Assembly (NCBI GenBank): GCA_964521495.1
Contig: CAZFTF010000004.1
Span: forward strand, 15,889-79,888
Length of the DNA stretch: 64,000 nucleotides
Origin: an uncultured Candidatus Peribacteria bacterium
GTDB taxonomy: Bacteria > Patescibacteriota > Gracilibacteria > BD1-5 > JAGOOR01
Direction of reading: 5' to 3'
Shown: piece after piece, positions 45,421-49,066 of the stretch
Numbering within the stretch: the first letter of the stretch is position 1
Layout of the letters: each line of letters starts with the position of its first letter
Notes under the pieces: generated by a model
Seen by the model: only the letters and a program-made list of their open reading frames with translations
What the model was told of the DNA's origin: nothing
The model's database searches: none
Made by a program: the position numbers and the translations under genes

Positions 45421-45482
45421 AAGCTCCTCGAGAGTATAAATCTGTTGAGAAGAATCAGCAAATCATGCTGTTTGAGCGTAGA

Positions 45483-45731
45483 CTATTGAGGTGAACATGG
45501 TTCAACAAGGTTTAAGAAAAGTTTTTTATTCTGCTTAATTCCAATTACTCGAACGAGCGACTGGAGAGCGCGAATAGTCTTGCCACTACGACCAATAACA
45601 CGCTTCATATCATCCGTGTGAACGGTGAGCTGGTAGCGTGTAGCGTCCTCATCCTCTCGTACCTCGAGAGATACGGATTCAGGCTGAGAGACAATGCGAG
45701 AGATACAAAAACGGATAAAATTTTCTGCCAT
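45483..45731 (-). CDS. khpA: KH-domain RNA-binding protein KhpA (YlqC/UPF0109)
   Basis: Intact 82-aa ORF directly downstream of rpsP, the classic rpsP-khpA synteny. The KH motif is VIGRSGKTIRAL. Confidence 0.8.
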   Translation of the reverse strand: MAENFIRFCISRIVSQPESVSLEVREDEDATRYQLTVHTDDMKRVIGRSGKTIRALQSLVRVIGIKQNKKLFLNLVEPCSPQ

Positions 45732-45780
45732 AAAAATGAGTATTACACTCTATGCTTTCAGATCCTCAACTATCACTATA

Positions 45781-46017
45781 TTACACTGAGAGAGCGTTCT
45801 TCTTGAGAAGTTTTGCAAAAGATTCAGACATTTGAGCACCATGAGAAACCCTCTCACGGACGCTGTCCATATTGAGTTCATATTTTTTTGAGCGAGGATC
45901 ATACCATCCGATAACCTCGATTTCGCCGCATTTAGCTGGCTTTGTGTGTTCTGTGACGACGATGCGGTAGTGAGGTGATCTCTTTCGACCTGCTCGTGAA
46001 AAACGAATCATTAACAT
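45781..46017 (-). CDS. rpsP: 30S ribosomal protein S16
   Basis: MLMIRFSRAGRKRSPHYRIVVTEHTKPAKCGEIEVIGWYDP matches S16. The start lies within track ORF 45781..46041. Confidence 0.9.
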   Translation of the reverse strand: MLMIRFSRAGRKRSPHYRIVVTEHTKPAKCGEIEVIGWYDPRSKKYELNMDSVRERVSHGAQMSESFAKLLKKNALSV

Positions 46018-46145
46018 AAGGAATAATTGAAAAATACCCAAGTATTCTATAGAATTTCAGGTAAATGCAAGTTTTTTGTGTGTTTTTCTTCACAAATTAC
46101 ATATTTTGCTTATTATGGGACTAAATTCCTTAATAATACAGCATT

Positions 46146-46703
46146 ATGTCCATCGAAAAAAGCCGCATTTCCTGGGATCAGTATTTTATGGGTCTTGCAC
46201 TCCTTTCTGCCCAGAGAAGCAAAGATGCTCGCACCAAGATAGGGGCGTGTGTTATTGACGCTCATAATCGTATTATTGGTATCGGATACAATGGTTTTCC
46301 TCGCGGATGTCCAGATGACGAATTCCCAAATGCTGGGAGATTTGATGAGGCAGGAAATGCACTTCCACTTCAAGAGACTAAACTAGCGTATGTCGTCCAT
46401 GCAGAAGCCAATGCTATTCTCAATTCTATGGGCCGTGATATGCAATGAGCGACGCTCTACTGTGCGATGCCTCCATGCCATGAATGTGCGAAGCTGATAA
46501 TCCAAGTAGGCATCAAGCGAGTTGTTTATCTCTCAAGTCCTACCTATGAACAAAAAGATAGTTTTATTATTTCAAAAAGGATGTTTCAGGTGGCAGGTGT
46601 TATCTGTGAGGCCTATAGCGGTTCAACAGAAGAAATTCATCTTACTTTTGAAGATCAAAATGATGCGTATGCCAATAAAGATTCGTGATGTAATTGTTGT
46701 TAG
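46146..46703 (+). CDS. Deoxycytidylate (dCMP) deaminase
   Basis: Track ORFs 46146..46448 and 46467..46688 share one frame and run to TAG 46701-46703. Zinc motifs are HAEANAI and PCHECAKLI. A TGA falls at G in [G]ATLYCAMPPC. Confidence 0.85.
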
Positions 46704-46708
46704 TTTTT

Positions 46709-47755
46709 ATGAAAGTTCTTCTTCAACGCGTTTCTTGCGCTTCTGTCACTGTAGATAACAAAATAGTTGGGAGTATATGAAATGGATTTGTGATATTTCT
46801 TGGGATTACTCATAATGATAATGAACAAGATGTTCCAGCACTTGCTGAAAAAATAGCCAAGATTCGTCTTTTCCCTGATGCTAATTATCCAGCGGAAGGT
46901 TCAAAAGCTATCAATTGTTCAATTCGGGACATTGATGGGCAAATATTATTGATTAGCCAGTTCACACTGTATGCTGATACAAGTGCGGGGAATCGTCCAA
47001 GTTTTACGGATGCTGCAAAACCAGAAATGGCAGAGAAATTGTATGAATTAATGAAGTTCGAACTGCAAAAAATCACAGAAAAACCGGTTCAATCAGGTCT
47101 CTTCGGAGCTCATATGCATGTGGAACTGATTAATGATGGACCGGTGACAGTTATGATTATCGAGGAGTTTGTTTTTTCGTGTGACATCACCACCATAGAG
47201 GTATCCTGTGACATCTTTTCGATACGCATTGATGGTCTCACGAGCGATGACTTTTGCTCCGATAGCTGCTTGAATTGGGATAGAGAAGAGCTGCTTCGGG
47301 ATAGCTTTTTTGAGTTTTTCACAAAGTTCTTGTCCGACATAAAACGCCTTGCTTCTGTGGGTAATCGTGGAGAAAGCTCAGATTCGCTCATTATTGACGA
47401 GGATGTCGATTTTTACGAGATCATCACGTTTGTAATTCAATTGTTCATAGCTCATGCTCGCATATCCAGAGGAGCGAGATTTCAAATCATCATAAAAATC
47501 TGTGATAATTTCTGCCATCGGGATTTCATAGGTGATAATTGAGCGAGTTTCATCGATATAGGTCTGATTTTTGTAGATTCCACGGTGTTCTTGGGCAAGC
47601 TTCATCATTTCTCCGATCATATCACTACGAGAGATGATTTCGAGCTTCACAATCGGTTCTTCTATCCAGTCATAGGTACCTGGTTCTGGGAGGCGTTCAG
47701 GGTTTTTGATCCAGAGACGAGTAAAGGTTCTATCACCAACTTGCTCGACTTGTAG
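46709..47755 (+). CDS. dtd: D-aminoacyl-tRNA deacylase with no stop at its natural end (formal ORF runs antisense into lepA)
   Basis: ATG 46709 gives [23 protein letters not shown][G]NGFVIFLGI...[15 protein letters not shown]...[21 protein letters not shown], a complete Dtd domain ending near 47160. The first in-frame TAA or TAG is at 47753-47755. Confidence 0.75.
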
Positions 47756-48949
47756 GGGGGTATTTTTGAAATCATGGCTGTGGTCACCCGGCATCATCAC
47801 TTGGTAGGTCACTTGTGGAGAAGTCAGGATGACATCGAGGTCAAATTCCCGATCCAGTCTTTCTTTCACGATTTCCATATGGAGAAGTCCGAGAAACCCA
47901 CAACGGAAGCCATGTCCGAGGGCAGGGGAGACCTCGTGTTCATTCGTGAGAGAGCTATCACTCATCTTGAGTTTTTCGATATCAGTTTTGAGCTGATTGT
48001 AGTCCTCAGTATCGACTGGGTAGACACCAGCGAAGACGTAGGGAACGACTTTTTGAAATCCAGGAATGGGATGTTTGTATTCTTCTGCACCCGCAAAAAT
48101 AGTATCTCCAACACGTGCTTCCTGCAAAGTCTTGATACCAGTCACGATATAGCCGATTTCGCCTGATTTGAGAGAGGCAAGTGGTTTGTATTCTGGTTGG
48201 AAACACCCGACCTCGAGAATATCAACGATAGTATTGGTGCTCATCAGAGTGATTTTATCACCTCGTTTTATTTCACCAGAAAAAAGTTTAATATAAATCA
48301 CAACCCCTCGATATGAGTCATACTGCGAGTCAAAAATCAGTCCGAGTTTCACAGAATCTGGGATTTTCCCAGGGGCATTATTTGGTATGATTTTCCCTTC
48401 TGACGCGACTGAGCGAGGCTCTGGAATTCGTGCCACGATAGCATCGAGGACGTCTTCGACATTGGTCCCGACTTTCGCTGAAACACAGATAATATCTTCA
48501 TCTCGGCATCCAATAAGTGAGATAACTTCTCGCTTCGTTCGTTCGATGTCAGCAGAAGGGAGGTCTATTTTATTCAAAACAGGAATAATCACGAGATCGT
48601 GCTCAATCGCCATATACAGGTTGGAGAGCGTTTGTGCTTCAATTCCTTGTGTTGCATCGACGACGAGAATCACTCATTCCACAGAAGCGAGACTACGAGA
48701 GACTTCATACTGAAAATCTACATGTCAAGGCGTATCGATGAGGTTGAGTTCATATCATTTCCATGCCATTCTGACAGGAGTGAGTTTGATAGTAATACCT
48801 CGCTCTTGCTCTATATCCATTGTGTCGAGCATCTGAGCATTTTTCATCTCTCGTTTTTCTTTGGTTCCAGTGAGTTCGAGCATCCTATCGGCCAAGGTGG
48901 ATTTACCATGGTCAATATGAGCGATGATGCCGAAATTACGTATTTGCAT
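47048..48949 (-). CDS. lepA: Translation elongation factor 4 (LepA) with a non-canonical C-terminal 37 residues
   Basis: ATG 48947-48949 ([19 protein letters not shown]). Motifs DTP[TGA]HVDF and VE[TGA][10 protein letters not shown], with track ORF 47378..48673 in frame. The sequence matches LepA up to ...[12 protein letters not shown] and then diverges, reading antisense to dtd, to TAA 47048-47050. Confidence 0.9.
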
Positions 48950-49066
48950 GCGGTGTATGATAAGAAAAAGCGAAAATTTGCAAGCAAAGTACTCAGAAGC
49001 ATTTAGTATACTAAAAAACACCATAAAATACTTGATTTCCTGAGAAATATCTGATAGACTGAATCT

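Follow-up and report, generated by a model that had tools for sequence, protein, structure and literature searches.

The locus described here raises the question of how two convergent genes, dtd and lepA, can run into each other so that neither has the end that is typical of its family. The window (the whole stretch of 64,000 nucleotides that was analysed) carries dtd on the forward strand and lepA on the reverse strand, and the original prediction was that both genes are truncated at the same place. We find that both indeed lose their natural ends at one point, at about 47151-47161. Our preferred reading, to which we give a probability of roughly 0.6, is that the collision is a real, lineage-specific and one-off recombination scar, in which a foreign dtd has displaced the 29 codons with which lepA normally ends. 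This estimate covers a lesion that is fixed as well as one that is polymorphic. The coordinates of the features are collected in Table 1.

Table 1. Features of the dtd-lepA collision and related loci; positions are those of the window unless a contig of the assembly (G000) is named.
Feature	Position	Strand	Description
dCMP deaminase gene (ComEB-like), intact	46146..46703	+	TAG stop 46701-46703
Left junction zone	46704..46726	.	TTTTTATGAAAG then TTCTTCTTCAA (46716-46726 = dtd codons 3-6, VLLQ)
dtd ORF, table 25	46709..47755	+	348 aa; TAG stop 47753-47755
dtd core	46709..47158	+	150 aa; D-aminoacyl-tRNA deacylase domain, complete and canonical
Right junction zone	47150..47161	.	GTT ATG ATT then ATC GAG GAG in the window
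dtd-frame continuation	47159..47755	+	198 codons antisense to lepA, codon-aligned; ends at TAG 47753-47755
lepA whole ORF	48949..47048	-	633 aa; TAA stop 47048-47050
lepA (EF4) core, intact	47159..48949	-	residues 1-597
LepA neo-tail	47048..47158	-	36 codons antisense to dtd plus TAA stop
Class-I release factor	G000 C5:12410-13483		own ORF carries 3 TGA codons
tmRNA gene	G000 C8:20691-21134		78 bits; missed by ARAGORN

The window belongs to an assembly of 1.04 Mb in 37 contigs that is 95.6% complete. For comparison we used 30 relatives, named as Candidatus Gracilibacteria MAGs, of which 18 are genomes of the same genus and 12 are others from the same order; the 3' end of lepA can be read in 17 of the genus loci. 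TGA is read as glycine in this genome, as in genetic code 25 (Gracilibacteria/SR1), and all the features considered for this assignment agree. The lepA gene has in-frame TGA codons at the invariant glycines of DTPGHVDF and of (C/V)EG(A/V)(L/I)L, and a tRNA with the anticodon UCA adjoins tRNA-Gly(GCC). There is only one class-I release factor locus, which scores above the prfA cut-off (471 > 423 bits) and below the prfB cut-off (286 < 370 bits). Codon 24 of dtd is also an in-frame TGA, at a position where some homologues have glycine. This means that only code 25 can be applied to the gene, which rules it out as a stray fragment from a standard-code contaminant. Its GC content is unremarkable (0.38 versus 0.40 for the window).

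The core of the dtd product leaves little doubt about its family. Pfam Tyr_Deacylase (PF02580) matches it with 175.6 bits (cut-off 25) over residues 2-150 and profile positions 1-143 of 144, and Dtd structures in the PDB match at E values of about 1e-30. The SQFTL and NxGPxT (Gly-cisPro) motifs are both present, the latter as NDGPVT, and both line up with the invariant columns of ten homologues. All ten of these homologues terminate 5-10 residues past this motif. The window Dtd departs from the single-domain length of about 145-150 aa, and its frame stays open for 198 codons beyond the domain. The original prediction that dtd lacks a stop at its natural end is thus borne out: the domain ends at 47158 and no TAA or TAG follows before 47753-47755. 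A search of the 198-codon continuation found no Pfam domain. The window Dtd also has a six-residue insertion, NYPAEG (residues about 56-61, window 46874-46891), relative to all ten aligned homologues.

The product of lepA is likewise an unmistakable family member up to the junction. Its Pfam domains are GTP_EFTU (190.7 bits), GTP_EFTU_D2, EFG_C and LepA_C (108.5 bits), and solved EF4 structures match it with E = 1e-171. The LepA_C match covers profile positions 1-86 of 107 only, leaving a domain without the basic C-terminal helix that follows the GG linker. The protein follows the family to ...RKNKLLD, with D597 (47159-47161) as the last family residue, so that 10 residues are kept past the Gly-Gly linker and the next 29 are lost. 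What follows is the antisense of the Dtd C-terminus, and even the lepA stop codon is the antisense of a dtd leucine codon, TTA. The original prediction had described this antisense tail correctly in its nature and its end at TAA 47048-47050, but its length is 36 residues; the 37 proposed include the shared aspartate. The neo-tail is acidic to neutral, versus about 10 lysines in the 29 residues of the conserved tail. We see no relaxed selection on lepA: its product is 95% identical in amino acids to that of the closest relative and has 1 private change at genus-invariant sites, versus 1-13 in the other genomes. As neither the LepA core nor the Dtd core shows decay, the event is either recent, or tolerated, or not real.

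The length of the open dtd frame might seem to be the most striking property of the locus, but it needs no special explanation. Under code 25 only TTA and CTA codons give stops in the codon-aligned antisense frame, and lepA has no TTA and a single CTA among its 634 codons, with CTC accounting for 32 of its 50 leucine codons. The dtd frame is open on the antisense of lepA as a result, in agreement with what had been supposed from the sequence, and the single CTA of lepA is the TAG that closes the dtd ORF. Over the whole codon-aligned antisense frame of lepA (47159-49006, +) there is one stop in about 630 codons, which leaves ORFs of 198 and 410 codons. Genes of this kind yield long spurious antisense ORFs under code 25, and gene callers may annotate them.

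The comparison with the relatives shows which of the two genes is in its usual place. All of the relatives have lepA (30/30), but dtd turned up neither in the genus (0/18 genomes) nor in the other relatives from the order (0/12). The conserved basic LepA tail, which closes with ...(E/A)TFIDILKK(K)*, is present in all 17 readable genus loci and in a JGI metagenome contig (L228, Ga0456303_0004285), and in every relative the DNA homology to the window ends at 47151-47160. When the tail of the relatives was searched with tblastn against the window's own assembly, only the truncated locus was found. The loss of the LepA C-terminus, as originally predicted, therefore holds at the level of the domain profile, of the relatives and of the assembly itself. 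The other part of that prediction, a deletion between two long-standing neighbours, does not fit: the deaminase gene of the relatives either abuts lepA or flanks other cargo and none of them has dtd, so the primary event would be the insertion of dtd.

The site of this putative insertion lies between lepA and an intact dCMP deaminase gene. The deaminase ends in ...CNCC* in agreement with relatives such as G012, its stop lies 5 nt ahead of the dtd ATG, and the Pfam family dCMP_cyt_deam_1 is on record for a Logan contig that is identical to the window here. In G007 the stops of the convergent deaminase and lepA genes are 2 nt apart with nothing between them. G017 has no ORF between the two genes either, and a bidirectional terminator hairpin is found there, likewise in G011; G008 and G009 have a terminator hairpin downstream of lepA, but a different upstream gene. 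The gap is occupied by an unrelated 181-aa ORF in G005 (L002 864-1452) and, in L228, by an ORF of 116 aa that has the orientation of lepA. Across the five loci whose gap contents we compared (L002, L228, L009, L015 and L016), different unrelated small ORFs are found, or the gap is empty. In G005 the insert has changed the C-terminus of the deaminase and cost LepA one terminal lysine. From these comparisons the gap between the deaminase gene and lepA is a variable site that looks like a recurrent insertion hot spot. In several relatives (loci L007, L003, L004 and L012) a textbook bidirectional intrinsic terminator hairpin lies in the 30 nt directly after the lepA stop, for example aaaagacccctttcaaggggtctttt. 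No such hairpin lies immediately past the lepA stop in the window or in G007, and no terminator is predicted near the window join. Around dtd we found no meaningful direct or inverted repeats, nor does an integrase flank the insert.

Where did the dtd gene come from? Of the 301 genomes of the class, 91 have PF02580. Most families of the order to which the window belongs yielded no Dtd. The Dtds of other code-25 lineages share no more than 30-36% of their residues with the window Dtd and differ from it in their motifs, and we therefore reject an origin within the clade. These code-25 Dtds (L034-L047) have SNFTLxGRNxKG instead of SQFTLYAxTxxGNRPSF, with GP(I/V/L)N kept; they score 92-143 bits as against 170-205 bits, and have up to 11 TGA codons. 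The best homologues of the window Dtd anywhere are 56-59% identical, and a search of metagenome contigs gave no match closer than 55% identity. The top match comes from human-gut (Hadza) metagenome contigs, where it sits in the context hisS-S1-dtd. Judged from these comparisons, dtd is a horizontally acquired gene, foreign to the genus and inserted in this lineage specifically. Its arrival raises the further point of whether a Dtd could harm the recoding of UGA. The three tRNA-Gly genes of the assembly, with the anticodons GCC, UCC and UCA (G000 C1:6872-7042 and C5:62735-62811), all end in ...gcTCCA, which corresponds to the discriminator U73. U73 shields Gly-tRNA-Gly against bacterial Dtd, so an acquired Dtd would not obviously attack the recoding tRNA.

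The two joins themselves carry traces that may tell how the gene arrived. The sequence at the left join is TGTTGTTAG-TT-TTTATGAAAG-TTCTTCTTCAA-CGC in the window and TGTTGTTAA-TT-TTAT-TTCTTCTTCAA-GAT at the same spot in G007. In most relatives the shared 11-mer TTCTTCTTCAA occurs as the antisense of the codons that close lepA (LKKK), and in the window the identity starts 7 nt inside the left end of dtd. When dtd was shuffled, the first 40 nt had a stretch of at least 11 nt in common with the 90-nt lepA tail in 0.085% of the sequences (P about 0.001), a value to be read with the caution that the identity was noticed post hoc. On the right the relatives, written as lepA antisense, have CTT TTG TTT ATC GAG GAG; the match to lepA is beyond doubt from 47159 onward, and of the nine bases that precede it six agree as well. 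Between the joins about 87 nt of lepA coding sequence plus the stop (about 90 nt) are replaced by about 450 nt. The identities at both joins point to illegitimate recombination, although these putative microhomologies were recognised post hoc and are suggestive only.

If the preferred reading is right, the ancestor would have been arranged like the relatives, with the deaminase gene and lepA convergent and their stops 2-40 nt apart. Foreign DNA with a canonical dtd ORF would have integrated into the last 90 nt of lepA by an illegitimate, microhomology-assisted event, either in one step or by insertion followed by trimming. The left join would lie at the very end of lepA, directly past the deaminase stop, and the right join at the codon after Asp597, with the loss of about 29 lepA codons, of the lepA stop and of the dtd stop. 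Transcription of dtd probably results from read-through out of the deaminase gene. Having no stop, dtd would run into 198 codons of lepA antisense and give a fusion protein of 348 aa; alternatively, the dtd transcript might end early and give a non-stop product. In the other direction lepA would be read through 36 codons of dtd antisense until the dtd TTA supplies its TAA. The resulting EF4 would be without about 70% of its basic C-terminal sub-domain and the Dtd would bear a nonsense extension of 198 residues, and both proteins are probably impaired.

The strongest alternative is a local assembly fault or an unresolved polymorphism, in which case the contig follows an erroneous or minority path, and the cells, or most of them, carry the last dtd codons, a stop, a spacer and an intact lepA tail after dtd. 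We consider this possible but doubtful, and less likely than a recombination scar. One observation in its favour comes from independent Logan assemblies of two sequencing runs, which were reached by matching neighbouring genes that carry no TGA. A contig of SRR12762304 (SRR12762304_381239) reproduces positions 45473-47151 of the window without a difference and breaks off 8 nt short of the join, and two further contigs, from SRR12762304 (48249-53441) and SRR12762291 (48861-53077), are 100% identical to the window. The positions in between, 47152-48248, which make up most of lepA, were not recovered from the Logan contigs of these two runs. With contigs of 1.7-5 kb there is a roughly 1% chance of a contig stopping so close to the join, and the break plausibly hints at a branch in the read graph, such as a second allele or an unresolved path. 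On the other hand, Logan contigs are short in this region anyway, and the break may be a coincidence or be due to an unrelated SNP bubble. Exact searches of genome and metagenome contigs with a 26-mer and a 48-mer spanning the join gave no match, and the products of dtd and lepA, translated with code 25 and with code 11, have no exact counterpart on record. No independent contig that crosses the join was found, nor is the join-spanning code-11 ORF of 250 aa on record. A database protein (P0135) that is 100% identical over 166 aa was considered as a copy of the same locus, but it comes from the relative L228, at about 86% DNA identity. A literature search for studies naming the runs SRR12762304 or SRR12762291 found none.

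Two properties of the genes themselves also speak for missing sequence. The undamaged Dtd and LepA cores are explained by it as well as by a recent event, and the lost LepA tail is invariant among the relatives with a readable end. Against a fault stands the way in which De Bruijn assemblers work, as they emit k-mer-supported paths only. For a collapsed repeat to produce a deletion it has to be at least k long, and no such repeat is visible. The contig (C4) is 84 kb long and without N, and both flanks come from the same organism, as their synteny with the closest relative, G005, indicates. The flanks are collinear with G005 at equal identity (84.7% over 45857-46671 and 85.5% over 47151-48984), and dtd itself needs code 25, which makes the simple chimeric join that had also been proposed unlikely. 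Furthermore, the 11-mer that resembles a lepA terminus lies to the left of dtd, where an assembler fault would not lead one to expect it and where it fits an insertion into the tail and not an intact tail to the right. The missing tail was not found at any place in the 95.6%-complete assembly.

That the pair is instead a genuine, selected overlap, in which Dtd has an antisense-encoded C-terminal domain and EF4 a novel tail and both are functional, is very improbable, for although both long frames are open, both cores are intact, code 25 has only two stop codons and the genes of G007 show how closely their stops can lie (2 nt apart), the arrangement occurs in no relative (dtd in 0/18 genomes of the genus, a normal lepA end in 17/17 readable loci), lepA codon usage accounts fully for the open antisense frame, no domain can be recognised in the dtd extension, an acidic to neutral neo-tail stands where the conserved tail is Lys-rich, and E. 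coli EF4 is impaired on loss of the same sub-domain (PMC4339808). An overlap shared with related genomes, which would have spoken against a lesion, was looked for and no relative has it. A collision allele that is real and also kept by selection would be a newborn overlapping pair, enabled by the two-stop code 25 and the leucine codon bias. The organism would then live with an EF4 in which a tail encoded by dtd antisense takes over from the conserved basic C-terminal helix, and with a Dtd fused to 198 residues encoded antisense to lepA, but this is a far-fetched outcome.

What the locus means depends on which of the two leading explanations applies. If the junction is real, it would be a clean natural case in which a recoded (UGA=Gly) genome of minimal gene content has taken up a gene-sized piece of DNA horizontally. 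It would show how integration at the packed ends of convergent genes harms a neighbour gene, and how a two-stop code and codon bias turn a lost stop into an extension of 200 codons. The role of the EF4 C-terminal sub-domain is still debated. If the junction is an assembly fault, the error lies in a species-representative MAG, and it would be passed on in the form of an aberrant LepA and a 348-aa 'Dtd'. Either way this is a peculiarity of a single genome and no new system; on the preferred reading it is a scar of a known kind.

Several known systems can be set beside the locus. Illegitimate, microhomology-assisted integration of foreign DNA reportedly takes place in naturally transformable bacteria. 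The locus would resemble it in that a gene-sized foreign segment was inserted at putative short identities, 11 nt on the left and ATC plus 6 of 9 bases on the right, that neither repeats nor an integrase nor a target duplication is present, and that recipient DNA has been lost collaterally. It differs in that no long homologous anchor is evident. Local misassemblies of the deletion or relocation type in MAGs provide another comparison: as in these, conserved sequence is lost abruptly at one point and an independent assembly breaks next to it, but unlike them the locus has no flanking repeat or N run, its flanks are collinear with relatives and the far side of the insert bears a signature like that of recombination.

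For the LepA protein the closest counterpart is the E. coli EF4 variant deltaG555 (De Laurentiis & Wieden 2015, PMC4339808), which lacks the last 44 residues, that is, the sub-domain after the Gly-Gly linker. Ribosome binding of this variant is reduced, and in ribosome-dependent GTP hydrolysis its KM is up 10-100-fold and its kcat down 4-fold (PMC4339808). Both proteins lose the basic, mainly helical sub-domain that follows Gly-Gly. Whereas deltaG555 is an engineered, clean truncation of 44 residues, the break in the window LepA lies 10 residues past the linker, and this EF4 would be a natural allele that keeps 10 residues, loses 29 and gains an unrelated tail of 36 residues from dtd antisense. 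For dtd the relevant comparison is with the substrates of ribosome rescue, as non-stop and read-through C-terminal extensions are handled by tmRNA and ArfB (reviewed in PMC8874680). Like these substrates dtd has no stop near its natural end, and its mRNA would be a non-stop mRNA if the transcript ends before 47753. Unlike a pure non-stop mRNA, it has an in-frame TAG 198 codons downstream, so that a long fusion protein would also be possible.
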